Positions 4,666-43,960 of a DNA stretch of 64,000 bases are shown here, piece by piece; within the stretch, counting starts at the first letter, position 1, and each line of letters begins with the position of its first letter. Both the position numbers and the translations under genes were made by a program. The DNA comes from Patescibacteria group bacterium (GTDB taxonomy: Bacteria; Patescibacteriota; WWE3; UBA101185; UBA10185), in assembly GCA_018825365.1 (NCBI GenBank), contig JAHJEV010000003.1:387669-451668 (forward strand), given 5' to 3'. The notes under the pieces were generated by a model. It did not search any database. It was given only the letters and a program-made list of their open reading frames with translations, and had not been told where the DNA came from.

Positions 4666-5247
4666 ATGAAGCTTAATATATTTATAAAGTCGCTTGTGCT
4701 GAATGATTGTATTTTTTGGTTTTCAAACTATCTATTTCTTTCTATTGCAAGTATCCATATTTCAAAAAATATGGACAACGGTTCTACGCTAACTGCGGGC
4801 GTGTCTTTTGGAACATATTTCTTATTCAGGGGAATCACTGACCTGGTAAGCCCCCATCTTCACAAGAAACTTAGCACTAAAAACAAAGTTATTACTCTCA
4901 TTTTGTGTGTTTGTGCAGTATCCGCTGCCTTTTTCCTACTTTCATTTGTCAACAACGCCTATCTTGCAATCGTACTATTCGCAGCTATAGGTATCAGCCT
5001 AGGGATTTATAATCCCATCAAATATGCAGTTTTTTCTCTGCACTTGGATAAAAGTAAAGAGGAAAAAGAGTGGGGGCTAATGGATGGTGTTGGATTAATA
5101 AGTATCGCCCTCGCATCTTACCTTGGAAGTTATTTAGCGGAGAAAATTGGATTTGTTTACCTTCTAAGGATCTCCAGTCTTGGTTTTTTGCTTTCTACGC
5201 TTCCACTATTATTAAGGATACCGAGCTTACGCAAATATATATTTTAG
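4666..5247 (+). CDS. Membrane protein resembling the C-terminal half of an MFS transporter (possibly truncated)
   Basis: 193 aa with ~6 predicted TM helices. No N-terminal half is present. Confidence 0.4.
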   Translation: MKLNIFIKSLVLNDCIFWFSNYLFLSIASIHISKNMDNGSTLTAGVSFGTYFLFRGITDLVSPHLHKKLSTKNKVITLILCVCAVSAAFFLLSFVNNAYLAIVLFAAIGISLGIYNPIKYAVFSLHLDKSKEEKEWGLMDGVGLISIALASYLGSYLAEKIGFVYLLRISSLGFLLSTLPLLLRIPSLRKYIF

Positions 5248-5303
5248 CGACCGTGCAGAAATATTGGATCCTGGGCTGGGCCGTTAAGCCTGGGGAATAT
5301 AAT

Positions 5304-5329
5304 GGTTCTAGACCGACATGCTCAACCAG
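5304..5329 (+). repeat. Short island repeat copy c (GGTTCTAGACCGACATGCTCAACCAG)
   Basis: Family member lying between the ORF 4666 stop and the methyltransferase start. Confidence 0.7.
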
Positions 5330-5336
5330 TAAAAAT

Positions 5337-5933
5337 ATGTTAATGAATAAAATAGATATATTGTTAATAAATACCCCATTTAGAAAGTGGCTCTTAGATC
5401 GTGCTACCAAGAAGTACTATTTTGAGTATTTTCATGAATTGAAGGAGAAGACAGTTTTGGAAATAGGATGTGGAAGCGGTGGAGGGACGGAACTTATTCT
5501 AGAATATTTTTCCCCGCAACAAATAATTGCTACTGATCTTGATCCAAGATTAATTTCTCTGGCTAAAAGAAATGTTAAAAACAAAAAGGTTACTTTTGAA
5601 AAGGCTGACGCAACGAAGCTAACCTATGAGAATGAGGGGTTTGATGCAGTCTTTGATTACGGTGTAATTCATCATATTCCTTTGCCAGAATGGAAAAAAT
5701 GTTTAAACGAGACATATAGAGTGTTAAAACCGGGTGGAAAATTATTTGTATGGGATTTATCAATTGAATTTTTCAATACCGTTTATGGGAGAATAATCAA
5801 ATTCTTTAGTGTACATCCATACAGTAAGATGTATAGAAAACAAGAATTCGTGAATTACCTAAACTCAATAGGTTTTAAAATTATCAAAAGGGCTGAAGGA
5901 CCGAGGTACTTTGTTGTTATCGCAAAAAAGTAG
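5337..5933 (+). CDS. Class I SAM-dependent methyltransferase
   Basis: VLEIGCGSGGG motif I and an acidic motif II (ATDLD). Start set at ATG 5337 (MLMNKIDIL...). The longer track ORF from 5070 would read through repeat copy c. Confidence 0.7.
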   Translation: MLMNKIDILLINTPFRKWLLDRATKKYYFEYFHELKEKTVLEIGCGSGGGTELILEYFSPQQIIATDLDPRLISLAKRNVKNKKVTFEKADATKLTYENEGFDAVFDYGVIHHIPLPEWKKCLNETYRVLKPGGKLFVWDLSIEFFNTVYGRIIKFFSVHPYSKMYRKQEFVNYLNSIGFKIIKRAEGPRYFVVIAKK

Positions 5934-14813: not shown

Positions 14814-15515
14814 ATGAAAAAAACAAATATCAACATTAAAGCTATTTTTTCCAAAATTAAGACTTTCTTCGTGAGAATTAATCCTTTTAAAAAGAGTGGA
14901 AACACGTCTCTTACATCCATGAAAAATTACATCGTTAAAAACAAACTGCTTGTAGGAGGAATTGCAGCAGTAGCAGTCGCATTCCTAGGTGGCTACTACA
15001 TCAAAAGCCTTTTTATCGCTGCAACGGTAAACGGGTCTCCGATATCAAGAATGAAAATCATTAAGGAACTTGAAAAAAGAGGCGGTGCTTCAACCCTTGA
15101 AAGTATAGTTACCGAAAAACTAATAAAGCAGGAAGCTGCAAGAAGGCGTATTTCAGTAACTAATGAGGAAATCGACTCAGCAATCGCAAATATTGAAGTT
15201 AGCCTTAAAAGCCAGTCACAAGACTTAAAATCAGCACTTGCTTTACAGGGAATGACCTTAAACGATCTTAAAAATCAGATAACTTTACAAAAACTGGTCG
15301 AGAAACTACTGGCCGACAAAGTCACTGTGACGGACGAGGAAATAACGAAATACATCACCGACAATAAAATCTCGCTTCCCGAGGGAACAGATCAAGAAAA
15401 CACAAGGTCAATCATCAAACAGCAAATCACTCAGGAAAAATTGGGGCAGGAAATACAATCCCTGCTAGATGACTTGAAAAAGGCTGCGAAAATTAACATA
15501 TTTGTCAAGTACTAA
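14814..15515 (+). CDS. Membrane-anchored SurA-N-terminal-domain chaperone-like protein (no PPIase domain)
   Basis: TM helix followed by a SurA_N-like helical domain. Start may be at the internal Met at 14919. Confidence 0.5.
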   Translation: MKKTNINIKAIFSKIKTFFVRINPFKKSGNTSLTSMKNYIVKNKLLVGGIAAVAVAFLGGYYIKSLFIAATVNGSPISRMKIIKELEKRGGASTLESIVTEKLIKQEAARRRISVTNEEIDSAIANIEVSLKSQSQDLKSALALQGMTLNDLKNQITLQKLVEKLLADKVTVTDEEITKYITDNKISLPEGTDQENTRSIIKQQITQEKLGQEIQSLLDDLKKAAKINIFVKY

Positions 15516-15550: not shown

Positions 15551-16117
15551 ATGCTGCTCAAATTCACAAGATCTATAGATGAGATGCTACCTCTTTTGAT
15601 GAATGGAAAGGAAGTCAAAAGTAAGGATCCCGTCTATTGGGTCTTCTCCAATGTTTCAAAAAAATGGGAGCACGCAACCCTCATCTGTCCGGGAGACTTT
15701 GGAGGAGAGTTTCCTAAAACATTCGGACACTACCACACCACAGACTCAATTGAAAAATACAAGGTTTTATATGGGCAGGGAATCATAATTATGCAAAAAA
15801 GAAAGTTCATAGATGATGATTGGGTACCAGACCAAATCGAAAAAGTCTATTTTGTTGAGTTTCTCTCGGGAGATGAAATAAATATACCGCCGGAATGGGG
15901 CCATTCCTGTTCAAATATAGGTGCGGAGCCTTTATTGTTACTTGACGATTGGAAGGGAGAAGAGGATTACGAACCGATTAAGAAGTTGGGCGGTCTAGCT
16001 TACTTTTTGGTAAACAAAGATGGTAAAGCGGAATTTGTTCCTAACAAGAACTACAAAGATCTTCCAAAACCGGAGTGGATAACGGCCTCTGATTTTAATA
16101 AACTATCGTGTGAGTAA
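15551..16117 (+). CDS. Cupin-type glucose-6-phosphate isomerase (cPGI)-like protein
   Basis: Matches both cPGI signature motifs: TLICPGDFGGEFPKTFGHYH...EKY (TX3PX3GXEX3TXGHXH..EXY) and PPEWGHSCSN (PPX3HX3N). Confidence 0.55.
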   Translation: MLLKFTRSIDEMLPLLMNGKEVKSKDPVYWVFSNVSKKWEHATLICPGDFGGEFPKTFGHYHTTDSIEKYKVLYGQGIIIMQKRKFIDDDWVPDQIEKVYFVEFLSGDEINIPPEWGHSCSNIGAEPLLLLDDWKGEEDYEPIKKLGGLAYFLVNKDGKAEFVPNKNYKDLPKPEWITASDFNKLSCE

Positions 16118-16165: not shown

Positions 16166-16864
16166 ATGTCAAAAATCGAAGAAAACAAAACCTCGCTCCC
16201 CAACCACATATCCATAATAATGGACGGTAACAGAAGATGGGCCAAAAAGCGCGGTCTTCCTGGAGCTGAGGGGCATAGACAGGGTTCTATTGCTTTTGAA
16301 TCTTTAATGGATTACGCACAAAAAATAGGTTTAAAGTGTTTATCCGCTTGGGCATTCTCCACAGAAAACTGGAAAAGGTCAAAAGAAGAAATAGATTATC
16401 TATTCTCGTTAGTAAGAAAGAAGATGGAAAAGTGGAAAAAGAAATTCATTAAGGAAAAGATCCATTTCCACCATATTGGAAGAAAAGACAGGCTTCCAGA
16501 AGATATTAGAAAGGTTTTGGAGGAAACGGAGGAGGCAACAAAGGATTTTGACGGTTTCATTGTTGCATTGGCCGTTGATTACGGCGGACACGATGAACTT
16601 ACAAGAACCATTAAAAAACTTGTTGATGAAAAGATCGAAATTACACCGGAAAACATCGAAAATAATTTAGATACAGCGGGGCTTCCTAAAATTGATCTAA
16701 TAATAAGAACTGGCGGGGAAAAAAGACTGAGTGGGTATATGCCTTGGCAAAGTGAGTGTGCAGAACTTTACTTCTCAGACACATATTTCCCAGATTTTAA
16801 ACCAAAACATCTGGATGAGGCGATAAAAGACTTCAACTCTAGGGAAAGAAGATTTGGAAAATAG
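16166..16864 (+). CDS. uppS: Isoprenyl transferase / undecaprenyl-diphosphate synthase
   Basis: HISIIMDGNRRWAKKRG and ...RTGGEKRLSGY motifs. Confidence 0.9.
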   Translation: MSKIEENKTSLPNHISIIMDGNRRWAKKRGLPGAEGHRQGSIAFESLMDYAQKIGLKCLSAWAFSTENWKRSKEEIDYLFSLVRKKMEKWKKKFIKEKIHFHHIGRKDRLPEDIRKVLEETEEATKDFDGFIVALAVDYGGHDELTRTIKKLVDEKIEITPENIENNLDTAGLPKIDLIIRTGGEKRLSGYMPWQSECAELYFSDTYFPDFKPKHLDEAIKDFNSRERRFGK

Positions 16865-17020: not shown

Positions 17021-17662
17021 TTGTTCGTGAGAGTCGTTACCGGAAACAAAATTGAAGAGATAAATAAGCAAAAATTCCAAGAAATGACTGGTGGTTACTC
17101 CCGTGTTGAAATTGATTTGGGTACCGGAGATGGAAGGTTTGTTTATAAAAATGCCCTCTTAAGAAAAGACACCCTTTTTATTGGGGTTGACCCGGCGGAA
17201 AAACAATTGGAAATTTATTCAAAAAAAGCTGCAAAAGAAAAGGTTCAAAATTTAATTTATGTAGTATCTTCCTTTGAGATGCTACCAAGCGAGCTTAGAG
17301 AAACTGCGGATAAAATATACGTGAGCTTTCCATGGGGTACCTTGCTCGAAAACATTGTTAAACCAACAAAGGGTGGCTTAGATAAACTTCTGGAGTTATT
17401 AAAAGAAAAAGGAGAACTAGAAATAATTTTGGGGTACGCGCAGGAACTTGAACCGTCAGAAACAAAAAGATTAAACCTTCCCCCAATTCACTTAGGTTTA
17501 ATAAACGATATTATAGTTCCGGCTTTTGAGGACAGATCCTTTCATGCAAAAGAATTTTACGAAATGAGCAAAGAACAGCTTGGGGGTGTAGAAACCACAT
17601 GGGCAAAAAAGCTTAGATTTGGCAGGGACAGGAAAATCTACAAACTAGTATTCTCCAAGTAA
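17021..17662 (+). CDS. KamB/NpmA-family 16S rRNA (adenine1408-N1)-methyltransferase homolog
   Basis: Motifs VEIDLGTGDGRFVYK, FIGVDP, SFPWGTLLE and C-terminal TWAKKLRFGRDRK, matching my recollection of NpmA/KamB. TTG start with an extended -10 (TGaTAAAAT) immediately upstream. Confidence 0.5.
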   Translation: MFVRVVTGNKIEEINKQKFQEMTGGYSRVEIDLGTGDGRFVYKNALLRKDTLFIGVDPAEKQLEIYSKKAAKEKVQNLIYVVSSFEMLPSELRETADKIYVSFPWGTLLENIVKPTKGGLDKLLELLKEKGELEIILGYAQELEPSETKRLNLPPIHLGLINDIIVPAFEDRSFHAKEFYEMSKEQLGGVETTWAKKLRFGRDRKIYKLVFSK

Positions 17663-33179: not shown

Positions 33180-33530
33180 ATGCTCAAAAAAGAAAATCGT
33201 CTCTCTTCCAATTTTGAATTTAACATAGCAAGAAAATATGGAACCCATGTCGAAGGAGATTTCTCACATATTTATTTTGTAACACCGAAAAATTACGAAG
33301 GACCGACAAAAGTTGGGGTTGTTGTTTCAAACAAGTTACATAAAAACGCGGTAGTTAGAAATAGAATTAAAAGATTATACAGAGAGGCAGTTAGGAATAG
33401 TTTTGATAAGATAAACAAAGGAAACCTGTGGGTCGCAATTCATCCGAAGTTTAACTCACAAGATAAGACTTATGAAGAAATTAATGCTGACTTTAATAAG
33501 ATTCTACAAAAAGCATCTTTCTCCAATTAA
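33180..33530 (+). CDS. rnpA: Ribonuclease P protein component
   Basis: KRLSSNFEF... and RNRIKRLYRE (RNR motif) directly after rpmH. Confidence 0.85.
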   Translation: MLKKENRLSSNFEFNIARKYGTHVEGDFSHIYFVTPKNYEGPTKVGVVVSNKLHKNAVVRNRIKRLYREAVRNSFDKINKGNLWVAIHPKFNSQDKTYEEINADFNKILQKASFSN

Positions 33531-33687
33531 TTTTGGGTTGGATATTTGTAGATACAAACCAAGCTGCGCCGATTACACATACCAAGCTATCGAAAAATAT
33601 GGGGCACTAAGGGGTGGTTGGATGGGTTTCAAAAGAGTGTTAGGATGTAATCCGTTTTCCAAAGGAGGCAACGATCCTGTAAAATAA
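33472..33687 (+). CDS. yidD: Membrane protein insertion efficiency factor YidD
   Basis: CRYKPSCADY...GALRGGWMGFKRVLGCNPFSKGGNDPV, classic YidD. Confidence 0.8.
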   Translation: MKKLMLTLIRFYKKHLSPINFGLDICRYKPSCADYTYQAIEKYGALRGGWMGFKRVLGCNPFSKGGNDPVK

Positions 33688-33702
33688 CAGAATCTAAAAA
33701 CT

Positions 33703-34476
33703 ATGTGGAATATCGTTCTAGTTAATCCAATATTAAACTTGCTAGTAGCCTTGTACAGAGGCGTTGGGAACCTTGGTATTGCCATAATTATTTTCACAAT
33801 TATTGTGAAGTTTGCAATGATTCCTTTAACAATCCCGTCAATAAAAATGGCAAAAAAGCAAAGGGACATCCAACCGGAACTTGACAAATTAAAAAAGAAA
33901 TTCAGTTACGACAAGAAAAAACTCGCTGAAGAGCAGATGCTTCTTTTCAAAAGACACGGAATAAATCCCACGTCCGGATGCATAACAACCATTATTACAT
34001 TTGTTTTCATGATTGCTATATACAACGTCATATCAATGTTTACTATGGCAAAGGATATCCAACTTATTAACGCCAGACTTTATTTCCCCTCATTTATATT
34101 TGGTGCGGGCGAGACAATTAACACATCATTTTTACACCTAAATCTTACAAAACCAGATCCTTTTATTATTGTTACTATTCTTGCAGTACTTACACAATTT
34201 ATTGCAACAAAAATGATGATGCCCTTCTCCCAAGTTGCCGATAAAGCAGTTAAAAAAACTCCCGGCCATGCCGACGACATAGCTCAAGCAATGCAAAAGC
34301 AAAACTTATACATAATGCCGATAATGTTTTTCGTATTCGGACTTACTCTACCCTCCGGTGTCATGCTTTACATTTTGTTCTCAACTATTTTCCAAATTGT
34401 TCAGACATACATGTTTTCAGGCTGGGGAGGATTAAAACCCTGGCTAATTAAATTAAAATTTTTTAAAAGGGAATGA
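33703..34476 (+). CDS. yidC: Membrane protein insertase YidC (short Oxa1-type)
   Basis: Conserved first TM and IPLTIPSIKMAKKQRDIQPE...LFKRHGINP core. Confidence 0.85.
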   Translation: MWNIVLVNPILNLLVALYRGVGNLGIAIIIFTIIVKFAMIPLTIPSIKMAKKQRDIQPELDKLKKKFSYDKKKLAEEQMLLFKRHGINPTSGCITTIITFVFMIAIYNVISMFTMAKDIQLINARLYFPSFIFGAGETINTSFLHLNLTKPDPFIIVTILAVLTQFIATKMMMPFSQVADKAVKKTPGHADDIAQAMQKQNLYIMPIMFFVFGLTLPSGVMLYILFSTIFQIVQTYMFSGWGGLKPWLIKLKFFKRE

Positions 34477-34958
34477 AGCATATGGATATTAAAGAGGTAA
34501 TCGAAACAAATCTTAAGAAAATATTTTCTCTTATCGGTATAAAACCCGAGTATTCAATCGAATCGGACGAAGAAGGTGTGTACAATGTGAAAATCTCAGG
34601 TGACAACCTAAATTTCCTAATCGGATTTAGGGGACAGTCTCTTGAGGCTCTTCAAACTCTTTTAAAATTAATAGTTTTTAGAAAAACCGAACAACAAATA
34701 GTTCTTTCAGTAGACATAAACAGCTACAAGAATCAAAAAAGTGAAAGGTTGCAGGAAATGGCAAGAGGTTTTATAGATAAAGTTAGATTTTTTGAGAAAG
34801 AAATTGAACTTCCAGTTATGAACCCCTGGGAAAGAAGACAAATTCACGTGTTTGTTGCTGAATACGAAGACGTAATTTCAGAAAGCACCGGAGAAGGTGA
34901 AAGTAGAAGGGTAGTTTTAAAGCCTAACAAGGTTGGTTCCAAAAAGAAGGAAAAATGA
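34473..34958 (+). CDS. jag: Jag/KhpB RNA-binding protein (KH + R3H domains)
   Basis: GFRGQSLEALQ (KH-like) and ELPVMNPWERRQIHVFV (R3H). Follows yidC. Confidence 0.75.
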   Translation: MKHMDIKEVIETNLKKIFSLIGIKPEYSIESDEEGVYNVKISGDNLNFLIGFRGQSLEALQTLLKLIVFRKTEQQIVLSVDINSYKNQKSERLQEMARGFIDKVRFFEKEIELPVMNPWERRQIHVFVAEYEDVISESTGEGESRRVVLKPNKVGSKKKEK

Positions 34959-36061
34959 AATTTTCTTGCTTACAGGAAAACTTATCAAAGGGACTTCAAA
35001 CAGTAATGCATGCCGTTCCTGCTAAAAGTTCGTTGCCGATTTTATCCAATGTTTTGATCTCAACTGATAACGGAAGACTTAAACTTGCGTCCACAAATCT
35101 GGAAACCGCAATCAGCACTTTTGTTGGTGCTTCAGTAGATGAGGAAGGATCAACCACAATACCCGCAAGGCTCCTGAAAGATTTTATAACTAACCTTTCC
35201 CCGGGAAAAATTAACGCACAGGTTAAGGATGAGATTCTCATCATCACCTCAAAAAACACTAAATCAAAATTTAATGGGAGTAGCGCCCACGACTTCCCGG
35301 AATTACCGACATTTCCAAAGAAATCAAAAGGTTTGGAACTTGATCCAACAACGTTAAACGAAGCTATGTCACTGGTTGCTTTTGCATCCGGAATCGACTC
35401 CAGCAGACCTATTTTTACCGGTATTTCTGTCACATTCTCAAAAGGTAAATTAACCCTTGCCGCAACAGACGGTTTCAGACTCTCAGAAAAAATAGTTACA
35501 ATTAAATCCAATGCCGAGGATTTTTCTGTAGTTCTTCCAGCAAAAACACTTTCTGAAGTCTCTAAAATATTTTCGTCATCTTCAGAACCAATTCAATTTG
35601 CTCTAAACCAAGATGAGAACCTAGCATTATTCAAATCTGAGGATACTTTAATCGCAACAAGAATACTTGATGGCCAATACCCCGATTACAAGAAAATAAT
35701 CCCAACGGAACATGTCGTTAAAGCCGATTTTAATACGATAGATTTCTTCGAGGCTGTGAGGCTTACAGATATTTTTGCCAAAGAGGGAAACAATACTATA
35801 AAGGTTCGATTTGACCCCGAAGGAAAGATAAAAATCACATCATTATCCGAAGAAACAGGTCAACACGAGAGCGTTTTCTCTGCCGAAATAGAGGGAGAGC
35901 TTGTTGAAATCGCATTTAACTCGAAATACCTGTTAGATTTTTTAACAAACATCAAATCTGAAAAGATTGAATTTCTGTCTAATGGAAATGTATCACCATG
36001 TTTGTTCGAACCTGACAAGCAAAAGAACTTCATACATATAATAATGCCGATGCAAATTTAA
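34955..36061 (+). CDS. dnaN: DNA polymerase III beta sliding clamp
   Basis: MKFSCLQENLSKGLQTV...LPILSNVLI N-terminus and three-domain length. Confidence 0.85.
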   Translation: MKFSCLQENLSKGLQTVMHAVPAKSSLPILSNVLISTDNGRLKLASTNLETAISTFVGASVDEEGSTTIPARLLKDFITNLSPGKINAQVKDEILIITSKNTKSKFNGSSAHDFPELPTFPKKSKGLELDPTTLNEAMSLVAFASGIDSSRPIFTGISVTFSKGKLTLAATDGFRLSEKIVTIKSNAEDFSVVLPAKTLSEVSKIFSSSSEPIQFALNQDENLALFKSEDTLIATRILDGQYPDYKKIIPTEHVVKADFNTIDFFEAVRLTDIFAKEGNNTIKVRFDPEGKIKITSLSEETGQHESVFSAEIEGELVEIAFNSKYLLDFLTNIKSEKIEFLSNGNVSPCLFEPDKQKNFIHIIMPMQI

Positions 36062-36075
36062 CTTTCTGAGGGATT

Positions 36076-38466
36076 TTATCTTAAATCCAAGTCTCCGCTT
36101 TTTCGCAGTGGGTTCGTTTGTGGTGTGTTTGGTTTTTGAGTTGTGTTGTTTTGAGGAATTGGTGGTTTAAGTTGAGTAGAAACCGGATTTGGCTTTTGCG
36201 GCTGGGTCCTTTGTTGATTTTGATTTGTTTTTTGTTGCGGTCTTTGTCTTCTCATCTCCTCAACAGAATCCAATATATCTCCGGCCGAAGGCATTTTGTT
36301 AATATAATCCTCATCGTCGTTATCTACCTTTTTAAGGTTTACCGTTTTGTTAACAACCATAGGTTTTTGTTCAACTTTAGGAGGAGGTGTCTGTTGAATT
36401 TGCGGTTTGGGTTGCGGAGTAGTTTGGACAACAGGCTTTACCTCCGGTTTTCCTTCTGGCCTAACCTCCGGTTTCACAACCGGAAGCGCTATTTCTTTTT
36501 TAGGCTCCTCAGGAAGCTTTGGTTTTACGATAAATTCTGGTTTCACCACACCACTTTTATCAAAAGTTGTATACGTATCCATACTTTCCGGAGCCTTGTA
36601 AGGCTTATACACGGGTCTTTGTGTACCTTGGTTTGGAAGCTTTGCTTGCTGAGTTTCTCTTTCTTTCCTAAGCCTTAAAATCTCCTCAGGATTTGTAGTA
36701 ATCAATTTATTTTCCGCATCAGAGGCCATAACTTTTATAGCTACGTGGTTTGCGCCCGCAAAAAATAGGCCTTCTCCAACTCCTGCCCCAAGAAGAAATC
36801 TTTTTTCTCCCTCTGATAAGTAAAAGGTCTCCACAACTTTATCTATTGCGGCAGGGTGCTGTTTTAAAAGCATTTGAATTGACGAGTTTGTAACAATAGC
36901 TTTCCCATATTCGGAAGTTAAGAAATCATCAACATCTTGAGAAATAGTTGTAAGACCTAAATAATATTTTCTAGCTCTTTTTGCTATTCCATAAATAAAC
37001 CTCGCGCTATCCGGGTTTTGCATCAGATACCAAGCCTCCTCGACAATAAGTATTCTTTTTCTTAAATCTCTTCGAATAGTTGTCCAAACAAAATCCAAAA
37101 TCATGTAAAAAGCAATTGGTCTTAAAGCTTCTTCAAGATTCTTGGTTGAGAAAACAGTCATTCTGCTGGTCAGATTAATATTTGATTGAGAATCAAATAT
37201 TCCGGTCATAGATCCTTTGATGAATCTTTCAAGCCTTTCGGCCATGCCTCTTGCTTCTGATTCCTCTGCCCCGAGAAGCACTTTATACAAATCTTCCATT
37301 ACCGGAGGCTCTTTCGTGGCCTGCGTTTCGGGATCAGCAGTAATTCCCTTTATTCTATAAGTTTCTATTAAAGCCCTATCCAACAAAGCCTCTTCTGTGG
37401 CGTTTAGACCCCCAAGCATTAATTTCAAAAGAGTAATAAGCGAAATAAGTTTTTGCCCAAGCTCGTTTTCTCCTTCAACCGCAATGCCTGATAAATCAAA
37501 TGGGTTTATTTTATTTTTTGAGTTAGCAGAAAAATCAATATAATTCCCCCCGACCACAGAACACAATTCTCGATACTCCTCCTCTGGATCGATAATCAGT
37601 ATCTCTGCTCCGAAAATTAGCATTCTGAGTGCTTCCAACTTTACGTAGTAAGATTTTCCTGCACCGGATTTCGCGAAAACAACTTCATTTGCATTCTCAA
37701 GGGAGAACCTGTCAAAAATAACCAAAGACCCATTGTGTCTGTTGATTCCATACATTACCCCCTCCTCCATTGTTAGATCCGAAGATGTAAATGGAAAGGT
37801 AGTCGCTAAGCTCGTCGTGTCCATGTTTCTCGTGATGAGAAGCTTATCGCAACCAGTTGGGACGGAGGACTGAAAGGCATCTTCCATTTGTAAGGAAGCC
37901 GTCTTTGAAATAAGCAGGAGCGAGGCCAGTGTTGATTCTAATTTGGCGGAAATATTGTCTAATTCCTCAAGGGAAGCGGCGGGAATTGTTATATAAAAGG
38001 AAAACTGGAAATATTTTTCTACTCCCTTTACCAACTGTTCCTGCAAGGCATTTGCGTCCTCAAGAGCGGCCTGAACGACGGGGTCTGTAATCTTTCCCTT
38101 CTCCTGATTGGACATCGTCGTCGCCTCAAGCTCCGTTATCTTTCTTCTTAAATCATCAAGTATAACTTTTGATTTGACCGGGTAATAAAACATGGACATC
38201 AAAAGTGTATGTTCAAAATTAATTATTGGCGAAAGCCAATTGGCTCCAACAAATCTCGGATACCCTGAAACGAACATGGTTCTGTAATACATGTTTCCAA
38301 TTTTTAAGTTGTTGAAGTCAACTTCAATAGCAGAAGGTGCAATAATATCTCTAACATTTAACATTCCCTCAGCGAGAATCTGAGGAGGAGTCTTCTCCCC
38401 GGGAACTTCTTTTTGATTCGAAGCGCTGGATTTTTTATTAAATATCGTAAAAATATTAAATGCCAT
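36076..38466 (-). CDS. VirB4/TraC-like type IV secretion ATPase with ~180-aa Pro/Gln-rich C-terminal tail
   Basis: FAKSGAGKSYYVK Walker A, ILIVEEAW Walker B region, VirB4-like length. C-terminus is low-complexity (KPEVRPEGKPEVKP...TQPQKPNP). Confidence 0.8.
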   Translation of the reverse strand: MAFNIFTIFNKKSSASNQKEVPGEKTPPQILAEGMLNVRDIIAPSAIEVDFNNLKIGNMYYRTMFVSGYPRFVGANWLSPIINFEHTLLMSMFYYPVKSKVILDDLRRKITELEATTMSNQEKGKITDPVVQAALEDANALQEQLVKGVEKYFQFSFYITIPAASLEELDNISAKLESTLASLLLISKTASLQMEDAFQSSVPTGCDKLLITRNMDTTSLATTFPFTSSDLTMEEGVMYGINRHNGSLVIFDRFSLENANEVVFAKSGAGKSYYVKLEALRMLIFGAEILIIDPEEEYRELCSVVGGNYIDFSANSKNKINPFDLSGIAVEGENELGQKLISLITLLKLMLGGLNATEEALLDRALIETYRIKGITADPETQATKEPPVMEDLYKVLLGAEESEARGMAERLERFIKGSMTGIFDSQSNINLTSRMTVFSTKNLEEALRPIAFYMILDFVWTTIRRDLRKRILIVEEAWYLMQNPDSARFIYGIAKRARKYYLGLTTISQDVDDFLTSEYGKAIVTNSSIQMLLKQHPAAIDKVVETFYLSEGEKRFLLGAGVGEGLFFAGANHVAIKVMASDAENKLITTNPEEILRLRKERETQQAKLPNQGTQRPVYKPYKAPESMDTYTTFDKSGVVKPEFIVKPKLPEEPKKEIALPVVKPEVRPEGKPEVKPVVQTTPQPKPQIQQTPPPKVEQKPMVVNKTVNLKKVDNDDEDYINKMPSAGDILDSVEEMRRQRPQQKTNQNQQRTQPQKPNPVSTQLKPPIPQNNTTQKPNTPQTNPLRKSGDLDLR

Positions 38467-38475
38467 GTTTTAGTC

Positions 38476-39177
38476 TCACTCCTCAATAATCGCTGGATTA
38501 ACAATCGCAGTTTTATAATCGTCTATATTTGTACGAATTCTCTGCCCATGAACAGTGCTTGGATTGTAGATATCGAAATAAAGTTCGACCAACTCTTGAG
38601 TAGTCAGTTGCTTAGTTTTTATACCAATTCTATTGAATTCCTTTATTATGTGATCAACCTTCGGTCCTATTTCTATCTTTCCAGATTGCAGGGCTTTTTC
38701 GACATCGACATTTATTCTCTTGTTGTGGGATCCGGTTAATCTCATCACCCAATCAAAAGCTTTTGATCCTTCCTGACCAACTATCGGTGAGCCTGAGGGA
38801 ACAACAACGTAAAACTTTTTATCCAAAACTTCATTAACTTTTATTACTTCCTGAACGAATTTTCTATATGCCTCAGCTTGGTGTTTAAGTAAAGGATCCG
38901 TAAGTTTGCTTTCAACCTTCCTAACTTTGTCAACATATTTTGAAATATCAAGTTTTCTTGACCTAATTACGATCTGAATAGGAAAAGTTATCGAATTTAG
39001 AAGCATGGAAAATGCCGCTATTATGGCATCTTGCTCAATCTCAGATAAAAGATCAAAATTTACTGCCGTAGTTTGAACAACAGAGCATATAATTCCGTTT
39101 TTGAGAATTACGTAATTATCTTTAATATCTTGAATGTCTAAATGATCCTGAGTTGTAAATTTATTCTGGGCGGGCAT
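38476..39177 (-). CDS. Hypothetical protein in VirB4-like operon
   Basis: 233-aa soluble ORF immediately upstream of and co-directional with the VirB4-like gene. Confidence 0.4.
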   Translation of the reverse strand: MPAQNKFTTQDHLDIQDIKDNYVILKNGIICSVVQTTAVNFDLLSEIEQDAIIAAFSMLLNSITFPIQIVIRSRKLDISKYVDKVRKVESKLTDPLLKHQAEAYRKFVQEVIKVNEVLDKKFYVVVPSGSPIVGQEGSKAFDWVMRLTGSHNKRINVDVEKALQSGKIEIGPKVDHIIKEFNRIGIKTKQLTTQELVELYFDIYNPSTVHGQRIRTNIDDYKTAIVNPAIIEE

Positions 39178-39179
39178 TG

Positions 39180-40787
39180 TTATCTACCAATCATTTCTAA
39201 AGGAGGCAATACTTCTCCTTTAACTTCTACAGGAATTATATCAAACGTTAGGTTTGTTTTATTGGACGGACTTATCTCAACTGTGTAAGTTCCATTTGTA
39301 AGGGGGGTTGAGATGACGAATTGCCCCATCGTATTAGTTTTTAGGGCTCTTACTGCCTCTCCCCTTTTGTTTTTTACTATGATTAGAAAATCACTTAGAA
39401 ACTTATCTTTAGAATCCTTGACAATACCACTTACAACATTAGGGACTTTCGTTAAAGGTTGAACATAACTATACTGAGAAACACCCCCCGATGTAGTGGT
39501 TTTTTGTTCTTCTAATTTCTGTCTAAGTTCCTCAACCTGTTTTCTTAACTCCGTGTAGCTTGAGGCCAACTTTTCTTTCTGAACTCCCAATCGTTTTAAA
39601 AGCTGTTCTTGGTTTGAAGTTTCCAAAGACATAGATTTTCCTCTTTGTATTTGAAGCGTAAGCCTCTCAATTTCTTTGGCCAGATCTTCATTTTGAGTCC
39701 TTAACTTACTAACAGTTTCCTCTGCAACTTCCCCAACCTGCTGCTCGTTATCAACCTTAATTTCAGTTGGTGAACTAGCACTAAACGAACGGGCAACTTT
39801 ACTTTTAGCAACCACCAAACCCTCTTCTTGCTTAATTTTGTCTAAGAGTTCCTTCAGTTTCTCAGCCTTCACCTTCACATCTTCCTCATCTTGTAAGTCC
39901 TGGGACGTACTCAAAACTCTTTCGCCTCTAATTGGAAGTATCAATTCCCCTTGGGACGGGGTAAGGTTTGTAAATTTTCTACCAGAGTGCATATCCGGAG
40001 TCATGGGCTCGTAAGTGTAAAGACCGCGCTGTGGTGTAAATCTTTCCGGAAGAATAAATGTATCTTTTTGTACCGCGGGCGTAATCTCAGTAACTTCTTT
40101 TACTCCTGCTTTTTCTTGCTTTAGAGGCTCTTCCTTCCCCTCGACAACCACACCTACATTCTTTACCTCTTTTGGTTTTTCTTGTATTAACGGGGTTACG
40201 GAGGATTCGGGCAGAGTTTCTACCACAATAGTAGAAGGCTCCTCTACCAACACCCCAACCTGCGAGCTCCTGGAAGCTGTGGGGGCACTTGGGTAGGCTA
40301 GCCTTACTTTCATTAAATACTCTCTTTCGGGAATATCAAGAGGATCCTCTTTTTCTTGTTCGTCTTGAATTTTCAGATACTCTTCAAGTTTTCTTCTGCT
40401 TGAGGTAGGTGCCAATGTGATCATTTCTTGTCTTACCACGGCAAGACTGTCGTAAATGAATGCCGTGGGGAGCTGGGGTTTTTTCATCCAAATTCTTTGG
40501 GTGGGGTGGTTTACCGCCCTAACAAAGTTTACTATCCACTCATCAAGTCCCCTCTCCTCAATAGGTACAAACGCCAAACCCAAAGCCAAAAGTGCAAGGA
40601 AAACAACAAACGGCCACTTAAAAATCCCTATTACTACAACACTAGCAAGATACGCAGCCAATCCAAAGGTAAAAAGATAAGCGAATTGCCGCATTGTTAG
40701 ATCGCCAATTAGCTTAAATTGAACATCCATTACATTTTGCGGTACTGGGTGTTGTTTATTTGACTGAGGCATATCGGGCATGGGCAT
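39180..40787 (-). CDS. Membrane protein (2 TM) with coiled-coil and C-terminal carboxypeptidase-regulatory-like beta-sandwich
   Basis: N-terminal hairpin TM pair, central Glu/Lys-rich coiled-coil. C-terminus IVKNKRGEAVRALKTN...TYTVEISP resembles a CarboxypepD_reg fold. Confidence 0.45.
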   Translation of the reverse strand: MPMPDMPQSNKQHPVPQNVMDVQFKLIGDLTMRQFAYLFTFGLAAYLASVVVIGIFKWPFVVFLALLALGLAFVPIEERGLDEWIVNFVRAVNHPTQRIWMKKPQLPTAFIYDSLAVVRQEMITLAPTSSRRKLEEYLKIQDEQEKEDPLDIPEREYLMKVRLAYPSAPTASRSSQVGVLVEEPSTIVVETLPESSVTPLIQEKPKEVKNVGVVVEGKEEPLKQEKAGVKEVTEITPAVQKDTFILPERFTPQRGLYTYEPMTPDMHSGRKFTNLTPSQGELILPIRGERVLSTSQDLQDEEDVKVKAEKLKELLDKIKQEEGLVVAKSKVARSFSASSPTEIKVDNEQQVGEVAEETVSKLRTQNEDLAKEIERLTLQIQRGKSMSLETSNQEQLLKRLGVQKEKLASSYTELRKQVEELRQKLEEQKTTTSGGVSQYSYVQPLTKVPNVVSGIVKDSKDKFLSDFLIIVKNKRGEAVRALKTNTMGQFVISTPLTNGTYTVEISPSNKTNLTFDIIPVEVKGEVLPPLEMIGR

Positions 40788-40843: not shown

Positions 40844-43800
40844 CTACCTCAAAAGAACAAGGAAACTCAAATCCTTCTGGAAAATCCCCCTGCTTTCCAA
40901 CAGCTTACCACTTTCGCTTAAGGAACTGCTTTTTGCCTCCACAATGGTACCAAAGGGTGGGCTAAAGGAAAAAACATAAGCGTCAGATCCGGTTCCTGCC
41001 TGTTTTTGCCATACGAGACTATATTGATTCTGATCCTTAGTAATTGAAAGGTTTACCGGAAGATCGTAACTTAAAATAAGCCTAACACTCTCCCCGGGAT
41101 TTATCTTGAAACTCGTCTCAAAGGAGTTATAAGCTCCCTCCTTAGAAACTGTAATCCCCTTAAAAATATCGCTTTCTACACCACCGTTATAAGAAATCTT
41201 TGCTCCCGTAAGTTTAGAGCCGTTTTGGGTTATTGCCCTGACATAATCTGTGTAGGGGCCCCCCGGCCAAGCGTTATCATCGGCAGTGTGTTTATAATCA
41301 AGGTATAAATTAGCTCTAAGCAACCCGTCCCTGGTCAACGCACTTACTTCATAAGTCATTTTGTTCTCAACATAATAATTTGCTTTCGTACCGCCAAGAT
41401 TGGCATTTACTATAAAAAGATAATCTCCGGGTGTATCTACCAAGCTTCCATCCCAGCGTTTTTCCTTCAAAAGTTTGTCCACAACGTTATTAGTGAAATA
41501 AATCATTAAGTGTCTTTCATCAAGGGACTTTCCTATCTGAGAAAGGAGTGGGGAGTAACTCTCACTTTTCAAAGCAAACAATCTCTCCATAAGTTTGCTT
41601 CCAAGTATAGTAAGGAATGATTTTTTGTCAGAAGACCCTTCTTTGTAGTCAAACCCGCTGTAGTACTGAGCTCTCTCATAAAAATTTTCTGCGCTAATGT
41701 CTTCGTTGTAAGATGCAAGATACAAAGGTCCTGTGACTTTTAAGAGACTTTTTACAAAATCCAAATCAACGGCAAGATAACCATTTATTGTTTCTCCGGT
41801 GATTTTGAAGTAGAGATCGTCAAAAGCTTTGGTAGATTTTGGAAAATCTGGATCCCAATTTGAATTCCTTAAATAAAGCACGTTCTCTTTTAGGAAGTTC
41901 TTAATCTGCTCTGGGGGCGTAACAGCTATTTTTCTCAAATCTATCTGTCCGTCGGGGTTGTAAATATCATCAATAACGAAATTTTTTATTTTTCCCTTAT
42001 CCAATGTTAAAACACCATACGAACCTATAAAGCCACCCGTCGGTCTCATTTCACTTGAGTTTTGAAACCAAAAAACATATTTTTTCTCGCTGTCTATTCC
42101 CAATATCTGGGGTAATTCGGAAATTAGTGTATAGCCAGAGTCAAACAACTCTCTTGCAAGAGCGGTGGCTTTTTCGTATTCAGATAGCTTTGTTATTATT
42201 TTTTCCGGGAATAAGCTTTTGTCAACCCCTGAAAAATCCGCCTCGGCTAAACTCAGGTGATTTTTTGCTTCGGAAATCCCAAATTTTGCCTCAATAAAAG
42301 AATCAGCATTTAAAACCTCCTGGGTATCCGGCCTTAAAACGCCAAGCGTGTTTTCTAAAGGTTTAATTGCAACAGAGGCAGAATACAAAGATCGGGAAAA
42401 AGATTCCGTAGAGCCTAAAAGTTTATCGTAAGAAGAAAGATAGTTGGTTTTCTTCGTTATTGAAAACACCCACCCAACTCTTCTAAGTGATTTTCTAGCA
42501 CTATTAAAACCGTCCGCTGCCAAAAGCGCCTCTTTTTTTAATGACAGCGAGTCCATTTTGGATACCGCAACTTTAGCTTTTTCAAGCGACAACACAGCCC
42601 TCTGAGAACTGAACAAAAAGCTTAGTACCGGAAAAGCTATAAACACAAGTGCCGCAGCAACAATAACGGCAAGTACACTGGGTACATATCCGAAATCTCC
42701 TTTTAATCTGTATTTAAAACTTCTTAACTTGTCTTCCAAACCACTGAAGATGTTTTTCTTGCCTATTTGGGTTACTTCATTTTTGACTTCCTTTCTCAAC
42801 ACCTTAATTGGCGACTCTTTGTACTTTCTAAAAAAATTCACAGGTTCTTTCAATTTCTTCTCTGATGCCTTCTCTTTTTCCCGAACTATTCCTTGAAGAG
42901 AAGTCACCTTTTCCTTGCTTTCTTTTGTACTTTCTTTGATTTTTTCCTCAACAAGTTTTATCGGTTTAAAAGCATGGGTATTTACTGAGTAACCAAAATC
43001 CTCAAGTGTTCTTATAACTCCCTCTTTTAGTCCAACTTTCGACTTCCAACCCAAATCTTTCAGGTTAAATGTATCCGGGGATTTCAACTGCTGTTTAAAA
43101 TCTGTAATTCCCGGTTTAAACTGAACAGAAAGCTTTGCGTCAGCTAAACTTTTAATCATGTAGGCGATCTCTAAAGCTGAGACCGGGTCTTTTGGTATAA
43201 GAGAGTAGATATTTCCTTTTGTTTTCGAATTAAATTGAGCTTTCACTAACCCGGAAACTACATCTGAAACGTAAAGATAGTACTCTTTCTCCGTTCCCTC
43301 CCCATATATCTCAATCGAAGATCCATCCAATACATTTTTTATAAATCCACCCAAAAATCCGCTAGATGATAGATCCATTCTTGGACCATAGACTTCCGGG
43401 ATTCTAACAATCCTCACATCAGCACCGTGAGTTTTAAAATATTCCCAAACAACCGCCTCTGCAAAACGTTTGGCTTCAATTAAACTAAATTTGTTTTCTT
43501 CGCTGGGTGTGATCCCAAAGTATTTATCAAGATAAAGTTGGGACATCCTTCCTTGATACACATCAATTGTTGAGACCAAAAGGAATTTTGCAGATGATCT
43601 TCTTGCCAAATCCAAAAGATTCTTGGTTCCCAAAGAGTTTGTAAAAAGAGATTCGAGATTTAAATAATCCTTGCTGTACAAATATTCCTCTACTCCGGCA
43701 AGGTGAAAAATATAATCCACACTTTCAATTTCTGGCGGGATTCCCTCATTAATATCTACATCGTACAAAGCAAATTTTTTATTGGATAAAAGATCCTTAA

Positions 43801-43960
43801 CGTGTATTTTTTTGCCGGTTTGGAAGTTATCCAAAACGATAACTCTGGCGTTGTTATCAAGCAAAGCCTCTGCCAAATGGGATCCTATAAATCCAGCTCC
43901 ACCAGAGATAAGTATGGTGGGAACCAGAGCAGATTTTGTTATTACTTGTTTTTTTGGCAT
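40844..43960 (-). CDS. Fusion protein: N-terminal SDR/UDP-sugar decarboxylase-like domain + TM helix + ~600-aa extracytoplasmic domain of unknown function
   Basis: ILISGGAGFIGSHLAEAL Rossmann motif. Expected YxxxK region reads IEAKRFAE (no Tyr). TM around residue 430. Long C-terminal domain without recognisable motifs. Confidence 0.6.
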   Translation of the reverse strand: MPKKQVITKSALVPTILISGGAGFIGSHLAEALLDNNARVIVLDNFQTGKKIHVKDLLSNKKFALYDVDINEGIPPEIESVDYIFHLAGVEEYLYSKDYLNLESLFTNSLGTKNLLDLARRSSAKFLLVSTIDVYQGRMSQLYLDKYFGITPSEENKFSLIEAKRFAEAVVWEYFKTHGADVRIVRIPEVYGPRMDLSSSGFLGGFIKNVLDGSSIEIYGEGTEKEYYLYVSDVVSGLVKAQFNSKTKGNIYSLIPKDPVSALEIAYMIKSLADAKLSVQFKPGITDFKQQLKSPDTFNLKDLGWKSKVGLKEGVIRTLEDFGYSVNTHAFKPIKLVEEKIKESTKESKEKVTSLQGIVREKEKASEKKLKEPVNFFRKYKESPIKVLRKEVKNEVTQIGKKNIFSGLEDKLRSFKYRLKGDFGYVPSVLAVIVAAALVFIAFPVLSFLFSSQRAVLSLEKAKVAVSKMDSLSLKKEALLAADGFNSARKSLRRVGWVFSITKKTNYLSSYDKLLGSTESFSRSLYSASVAIKPLENTLGVLRPDTQEVLNADSFIEAKFGISEAKNHLSLAEADFSGVDKSLFPEKIITKLSEYEKATALARELFDSGYTLISELPQILGIDSEKKYVFWFQNSSEMRPTGGFIGSYGVLTLDKGKIKNFVIDDIYNPDGQIDLRKIAVTPPEQIKNFLKENVLYLRNSNWDPDFPKSTKAFDDLYFKITGETINGYLAVDLDFVKSLLKVTGPLYLASYNEDISAENFYERAQYYSGFDYKEGSSDKKSFLTILGSKLMERLFALKSESYSPLLSQIGKSLDERHLMIYFTNNVVDKLLKEKRWDGSLVDTPGDYLFIVNANLGGTKANYYVENKMTYEVSALTRDGLLRANLYLDYKHTADDNAWPGGPYTDYVRAITQNGSKLTGAKISYNGGVESDIFKGITVSKEGAYNSFETSFKINPGESVRLILSYDLPVNLSITKDQNQYSLVWQKQAGTGSDAYVFSFSPPFGTIVEAKSSSLSESGKLLESRGIFQKDLSFLVLLR

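Follow-up and report, generated by a model that had tools for sequence, protein, structure and literature searches.

The 188-residue protein encoded at 15551..16117 (+) of the window, that is, of the whole 64,000-nucleotide stretch of DNA analysed here, is a member of the cupin-type phosphoglucose isomerase (cPGI) family (PF06560) by sequence, by profile and by predicted fold. Its most probable activity would be that of a divalent-metal-dependent isomerase of glucose-6-phosphate (G6P) and fructose-6-phosphate (F6P), as in the enzyme of P. furiosus (PfPGI), a reading drawn from sequence, predicted fold, selection and the gene context of relatives, to which we assign a probability of roughly 0.7. 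What is modestly new is the evidence from gene context and gene fusions for the subfamily to which the protein belongs, together with a naturally His-less variant of its active-site loop. The features on which the discussion is based are collected in Table 1.

Table 1. Features of the cupin gene and its surroundings in the window, and recurrent neighbours of the gene at related loci.
Feature	Position (nt) or frequency	Strand	Remarks
SurA-N-like protein, upstream neighbour	14814..15515	+	conserved synteny block; not functionally linked
Cupin-type PGI-family CDS, 188 aa and stop	15551..16117	+	ATG start
cPGI signature 1, residues T43-Y70, TLICPGDFGGEFPKTFGHYHTTDSIEKY	15677..15760	+	holds H60, H62, E68, T43, T57, G59, Y70
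Inserted stretch W91-F101, about 11 residues, missing from canonical cPGIs	15821..15853	+	subfamily-specific; predicted longer beta-hairpin
cPGI signature 2, residues P113-N122, PPEWGHSCSN	15887..15916	+	holds H118, N122 and the clade-specific C120
Shortened active-site loop, W134-Y140, WKGEEDY	15950..15970	+	3-residue deletion takes out 'GH'
C-terminal extension, L171-E188, with conserved P172, P174, W176	16061..16114	+	absent from PfPGI; predicted strand and helix
Undecaprenyl-diphosphate synthase (UppS), downstream neighbour	16166..16864	+	conserved synteny block
PGM/PMM neighbour	8/67 loci
Glucose-6-phosphate dehydrogenase (G6PD) neighbour	5/67 loci
ROK sugar kinase (glucokinase-like) neighbour	4/67 loci
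PPDK_N neighbour	2/67 loci

The gene is a real and selectively maintained member of the cPGI family. The open reading frame reported in the initial annotation is present with the sequence quoted there, and its start codon is backed by an N-terminus, MLLK(S/F)TR, that is conserved in 44 homologues. A search of 5.8 billion proteins recovered 49 full-length homologues with identities of 40-91% and E-values down to 1e-119, all of them carrying PF06560, and the few that are named belong to Patescibacteria. Also, the same protein recurs, identical, on four contigs, including JAHJCK010000002.1 of assembly GCA_018813105.1. When the gene is compared with its 91%-identical relative (P0001), dN/dS is 0.067 at a dS of 0.66, in the same range as the 0.056-0.064 obtained for other pairs of the family, which contain a His in the active-site loop. 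These homologues, the identical copies, a high-confidence AlphaFold model and a dN/dS of 0.07 leave a negligible probability that the frame is a chance ORF or an annotation artefact. Moreover, the GC content of the gene (0.40) lies less than 1 sd from that of the window (0.376 +/- 0.031), which argues for a resident gene, and with an equally unremarkable GC3 a recent horizontal transfer was rejected. A scan for promoters and terminators gave results no better than those of shuffled sequences.

Family membership had been proposed in the initial annotation on the basis of two cPGI signatures, and both are indeed present: T-x3-P-x3-G-x-E-x3-T-x-G-H-x-H-(spacer)-E-x-Y (signature 1) and P-P-x3-H-x3-N (signature 2). 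In a six-frame translation each of them is found once in the 64-kb window, in both cases inside the cupin gene. The two patterns are said to originate from the work of Hansen and co-workers in 2005, in which the spacer of signature 1 reportedly ranged from 6 to 11 residues. Between HxH and ExY, the window protein and 46 of 68 CPR-type relatives have a spacer of five residues, the length being six in all 35 canonical cPGIs sampled (35/35), and the double Pro of signature 2 is kept in only 10 of the 68 CPR-type relatives. The profile check suggested along with the signatures was positive, the match to Pfam PF06560 (GPI, cupin type) reaching 71 bits for a gathering score of 20.7 bits (E=1e-19, profile positions 54-171 of 182). 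With characterised cPGIs the protein shares no more than 23-26% sequence identity; in the PDB, the P. furiosus and T. litoralis enzymes match it at E about 4e-9, and an hhalign comparison of the 44-sequence CPR family with 35 canonical cPGIs, PfPGI among them, gives a probability of 99.4% (E=2.7e-21). An NCBIfam scan of the protein returned no relevant match, which is uninformative because PfPGI itself is without an NCBIfam match.

Two other domain assignments for the cupin protein from Pfam and TIGRFAM, a CshA repeat and Polysacc_synt_C, were discarded, their scores being below the cutoffs. The weak CshA similarity, to adhesin repeats of this type and below threshold (E 0.28 in Pfam, E 0.03 for TIGR04225), falls in the C-terminal hairpin region, approximately residues 125-185 (15923..16105); the same region also resembles 17 repeats in P0302, an adhesin of 3280 aa, through the common motif Y.(I/V)..DG...F.P.K.Y. 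This likeness is probably convergent.

The predicted structure leads to the same family. For an AlphaFold2 model computed from the family alignment (pLDDT 93.6, pTM 0.87), the first 12 places of a Foldseek search against the PDB go to PfPGI or TlPGI structures (E about 1e-13, TM 0.65-0.72), whereas all other cupins remain at E>=1.7e-5 and TM<=0.41. The metal ligands of PfPGI are His88, His90, Glu97 and His136 (PMC6627849). In the window protein, H60, H62, E68 and H118 align with H88, H90, E97 and H136, respectively, and are invariant in the 44-sequence family. Moreover, T43, T57, G59, Y70, N122, Y29 and Y140 align with PfPGI T71, T85, G87, Y99, N140, Y52 and Y160, which are substrate-contact positions in the PfPGI inhibitor complexes, and most of the residues that touch the substrate are in this way kept. 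When 68 relatives are compared, H60, H62, E68, T43, T57, G59, N122 and Y29 are unchanged in all of them (68/68), and a few distant ones differ at H118 (2/68), Y70 (5/68) or Y140 (1/68). The insertion W91-F101 lengthens the beta-hairpin formed in the model by strands 76-87 and 90-105.

In the mechanism proposed from this correspondence, the metal would sit within the beta-barrel, coordinated by H60, H62, H118 and E68, and would bind the open-chain sugar phosphate via O1 and O2 and polarise both. E68 would then be the base that passes the proton on via an enediol-type intermediate, by analogy with the P. furiosus enzyme. In a CPR cell, typically without phosphofructokinase (PFK), the G6P would be supplied by a ROK kinase, a phosphoglucomutase or G6PD-linked metabolism, and the F6P produced would enter the non-oxidative pentose-phosphate bypass and the synthesis of amino sugars and cell envelope. 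A link between G6P and F6P that serves this bypass and amino-sugar synthesis is the scheme usually drawn for CPR bacteria that have no PFK (Jaffe et al. 2020, PMC7304191). With this predicted enzyme, the reconstructed metabolism of one Patescibacteria MAG would gain its G6P/F6P step.

With respect to gene context, the order SurA-like protein, cupin, UppS and NpmA-like methyltransferase is found in the window genome and in its 15-17 closest relatives. A local operon logic for the function of the cupin was rejected, this block being inherited synteny of housekeeping genes that carries no information on sugar metabolism. When the immediate neighbours are counted at 67 related loci, PGM/PMM, G6PD, ROK and PPDK_N are the only recurrent metabolic families adjoining the cupin gene, and the PGM/PMM, G6PD and ROK neighbours fall in separate clades of the tree. 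Moreover, three fusions are present in the representative library (P0331, P0347 and P0416): a GalU-cPGI protein of 585 aa, in which TIGR01099 scores 360 bits, above the equivalog cutoff, next to PF06560, and two PGM/PMM-cPGI proteins of 542 and 822 aa. The partners seen as neighbours or in fusions, PGM/PMM, G6PD, ROK and GalU, all make or use G6P or G1P. The neighbours (G6PD, ROK and PGM) and the fusions (GalU and PGM) are the strongest available argument for CPR-type cupins isomerising glucose phosphate, and they add to an assignment that was formerly made from HMM matches alone.

Some further arrangements were observed around PF06560. Longer proteins containing this domain include one of 735 aa (P0368) and one of 1542 aa that also has a MraZ domain (P0438). 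At the loci L056-L060, L065 and L068 (e.g. L060:10723-12159) a PGM/PMM gene is followed by the cupin PGI-like gene and by a gene for a 478-aa protein, which has no Pfam match at 1e-5 and whose N-terminus, by eye, resembles the ATP-grasp part of PEP-utilising enzymes; upstream of this conserved three-gene block there are a DUF72 gene and an acylphosphatase-sized ORF.

The most particular trait of the window protein is its active-site loop. In most close relatives this loop reads W-K-D-G-H-x-x-x-D-Y and matches Y152...G157-H158-D-Y160 of PfPGI, with W134, a Trp that is invariant across the close family, aligned with Tyr152, and Y140 corresponding to Y160. The His-less, three-residue deletion is present in 3 of 50 close homologues, namely the window protein, P0001 and P0002 (74% identity), and exactly the same three proteins carry the substitution W120C (codon 15908..15910; GHSCSN vs GHSWSN). 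That both changes occur together suggests that the two segments touch and that one change compensates for the other. In PfPGI, Tyr152 and His158 are described as involved in proton transfer, on the basis of structural and QM/MM work to which PMC6627849 refers, and the counterparts of these proton-relay and ring-opening residues are not conserved in the window protein. However, at least 12 more distant members of the family are also without a His in the loop, including the PGM/PMM neighbours L056 and L059, the ROK neighbour L055 and the PGM fusion P0347, which argues that the loop His is not a family-wide requirement. Also, MAFFT and hhalign place the family His at sites 2-3 positions apart when it is aligned to PfPGI His158, and because of this disagreement the equivalence of both residues is uncertain. 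Since dN/dS is unchanged, the deletion is not read as a loss of function, a view to which the other His-less members and the uncertain His158 equivalence also contribute. The change at both positions would rather be a variant feature than a reason for exclusion from the family, because they lie outside the published signatures and the His is absent in other branches.

Several observations count against the PGI reading, namely the 23-26% identity, the change of Tyr152 to Trp, the deleted loop His and the spacer that is one residue shorter. Together with the long branch that separates the subfamily from canonical cPGIs and with W120C in the remodelled active site, they could fit an enzyme of the same family and chemistry that acts on another or a broader substrate, for example mannose-6-phosphate (as a PMI or a bifunctional PGI/PMI) or a sugar phosphate of envelope glycans. 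Envelope genes abound in the window neighbourhood (UppS, GT2 and an NAD-dependent epimerase/dehydratase), and PGM/PMM, the recurrent neighbour and fusion partner, acts on Glc and Man phosphates, so that its presence cannot separate glucose from mannose phosphates. However, the G6PD and ROK neighbours and the fusion to GalU, a UTP-glucose-1-P uridylyltransferase, point specifically to glucose phosphates. Moreover, the phosphate- and sugar-contact positions Y29, T43, T57, Y70 and Y140 are kept as in PfPGI, and the structural match to 2y0o, 7nzp and SPO2919 is much poorer (TM 0.31-0.39). On this balance, a different or broader substrate is the main alternative, but appears rather unlikely.

It could also be argued that the cupin of the His-less clade is catalytically impaired or repurposed, for example as a binder of metal or sugar phosphate, and that a conventional PGI encoded elsewhere serves the cell. 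The deletion removes the His in only those three of the 50 close homologues, and it concerns a residue whose PfPGI counterpart, His158, is implicated in proton transfer (PMC6627849). Nonetheless, the dN/dS inside the His-less clade is equal to that of the His-containing pairs, all the metal ligands are intact, some of the other members without the loop His (at least 12) lie beside PGM/PMM or ROK, and the correspondence of the family His with His158 is itself in doubt, all of which makes an impaired or repurposed protein very improbable. With an isomerase of G6P and F6P as the preferred reading, it is tentatively proposed that the WWE3/Microgenomates-type cupins might form a distinct cPGI subfamily with a longer hairpin, an extended C-terminus, Trp at the Tyr152 position and a plastic loop, in which the window clade has lost the His158 equivalent, carries W120C and is yet under strong purifying selection. 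Should the His-less enzymes have remained efficient PGIs, a relay of protons or an opening of the ring of the His158 type would be dispensable in cupin PGIs, which bears on their debated mechanism; should they not, a shift to another sugar phosphate would be indicated. The natural variants without the loop His would be ready-made 'mutants' for the enzymology of cupin PGIs.

Regarding its distribution, the CPR-type subfamily was found among GTDB species representatives at 73 loci in 73 species-level genomes, which belong to WWE3, Daviesbacteria, Blackburnbacteria, other Microgenomates, Moran-, Giovannoni- and Portnoybacteria, plus three DPANN archaea. A profile search of 1.84 billion cluster representatives (50% identity) gave 1036 clusters of the subfamily at E<=1e-3 and 553 at E<=1e-10. 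Also, 3477 homologues of PfPGI are found in the protein collection at E<1e-5; many come from bacterial MAGs, and the bacterial ones include Chloroflexi, Atribacteria, Firmicutes, Actinobacteria and Betaproteobacteria. The idea that cPGIs are rare in bacteria, from which the initial annotation started, is not compatible with these numbers. In a rough NJ tree the CPR/DPANN-type sequences form one clade on a long branch from canonical cPGIs, in agreement with the 'sibling clade' of Jaffe et al. 2020 (PMC7304191), and the window protein lies deep within the WWE3/Microgenomates part. In the same rough tree, the DPANN copies L064, L066 and L071 (Aenigmatarchaeota, Micrarchaeota) are nested among Parcubacteria-type sequences, which hints at an exchange between two groups of small-celled symbionts.

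The view of the protein as an unusual PGI solution is not supported either, given that the subfamily is common and that PF06560 cupin PGIs were already known to be scattered across the CPR, where they make up one of three alternative forms of the enzyme (Jaffe et al. 2020, BMC Biol 18:69, PMC7304191). In that work, more than one PGI form was present in only about 2% of CPR genomes, and about 15 genomes, mostly Nealsonbacteria, had the cupin form only. With 71 bits, the window protein passes the counting threshold of those authors (30.2 bits; PMC7304191). Cupin PGI-type genes of the CPR have been known since 2020 and are common, and the window gene would encode an ordinary enzyme. The picture of CPR metabolism is unchanged, three interchangeable PGI forms having been described already. 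For the biochemical characterisation of a CPR cupin PGI, no paper was found in the searchable literature.

The description of the source genome as bacterial and CPR-like is borne out by the rest of the window. Its GroEL has a 100% identical counterpart in a MAG labelled 'Patescibacteria group bacterium' and shares about 78% identity with a WWE3 GroEL, and other genes are typical CPR housekeeping genes (rnpA-yidC-jag-dnaN, a VirB4/PrgI module, FtsH, AlaRS and envelope glycosyltransferases). A Pfam scan of 61 ORFs of >=110 aa, those judged likely genuine among the 70 listed in the 64-kb window (about 14% of one 458-kb contig), revealed neither a PF00342 PGI nor a SIS domain, and no other glycolytic or pentose-phosphate gene among these same ORFs.

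Some additional genes of the window are worth recording. The gene at 17021..17662 (+) encodes a homologue of the NpmA-family 16S rRNA (adenine1408-N1) methyltransferases (PF24675, 177 bits for a cutoff of 60). The NpmA family is of the pan-aminoglycoside-resistance type. Since the four-gene synteny is kept in at least 10 related Patescibacteria genomes, this copy seems to be a conserved resident and not a resistance gene of the mobile kind. A 1038-aa protein of unusual architecture, with an N-terminal NAD-dependent epimerase/dehydratase and DUF4012, is encoded at 40844..43960 (-). The genes at 36076..40787 (-), for a VirB4/TraG-type P-loop ATPase (796 aa), a 233-aa ORF product with no Pfam match and a 535-aa PrgI-family protein with CarboxypepD_reg, together constitute a type-IV-secretion-like module. 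At 33180..36061 (+), rnpA, yidC, jag/KhpB (KH and R3H) and dnaN are consecutive, with no dnaA between jag and dnaN. Also, at 4666..5933 (+) an MFS_1 fragment of 193 aa runs into the 5' part of an ORF for a class-I methyltransferase of 287 aa; the overlap may reflect a truncated transporter or a mis-set start.

Finally, the window protein can be compared with the systems already known. It resembles PfPGI and TlPGI (1QXJ, 1X7N, 1J3P) in its size of about 190 aa, the single cupin barrel, the site of three His and one Glu, and both signatures. However, the first 20 or so residues of PfPGI have no counterpart in the window protein, which in turn has the insertion of about 11 residues and the conserved C-terminal extension of 18 residues, a Trp (W134) in place of Tyr152, and a shorter His158 loop without the His. 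Moreover, its source is a mesophilic CPR bacterium, whereas the other two enzymes come from hyperthermophilic archaea. The cupin fold is also shared with D-lyxose isomerase (2Y0O/7NZP) and the sugar-phosphate isomerase SPO2919 (3I7D), which likewise perform a metal-dependent aldose-ketose isomerisation, but these structures fit the model much less well (E about 1e-5 to 1e-4, with the TM values given above), and no sequence-family match accompanies them. Among bacteria, active cPGIs were reportedly described from Salmonella enterica and Ensifer meliloti by Hansen and co-workers in 2005, along with the archaeal AfcPGI and MmcPGI, and the two bacterial enzymes are a precedent for active bacterial cPGIs. 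With the CPR cupin PGIs of Jaffe et al. 2020, the window protein has in common the Pfam family, the radiation and the inferred role as an alternative PGI form; the cupin-only genomes of that set are mostly Nealsonbacteria, whereas the present subfamily is mainly from WWE3, Daviesbacteria, Blackburnbacteria and other Microgenomates-type bacteria.
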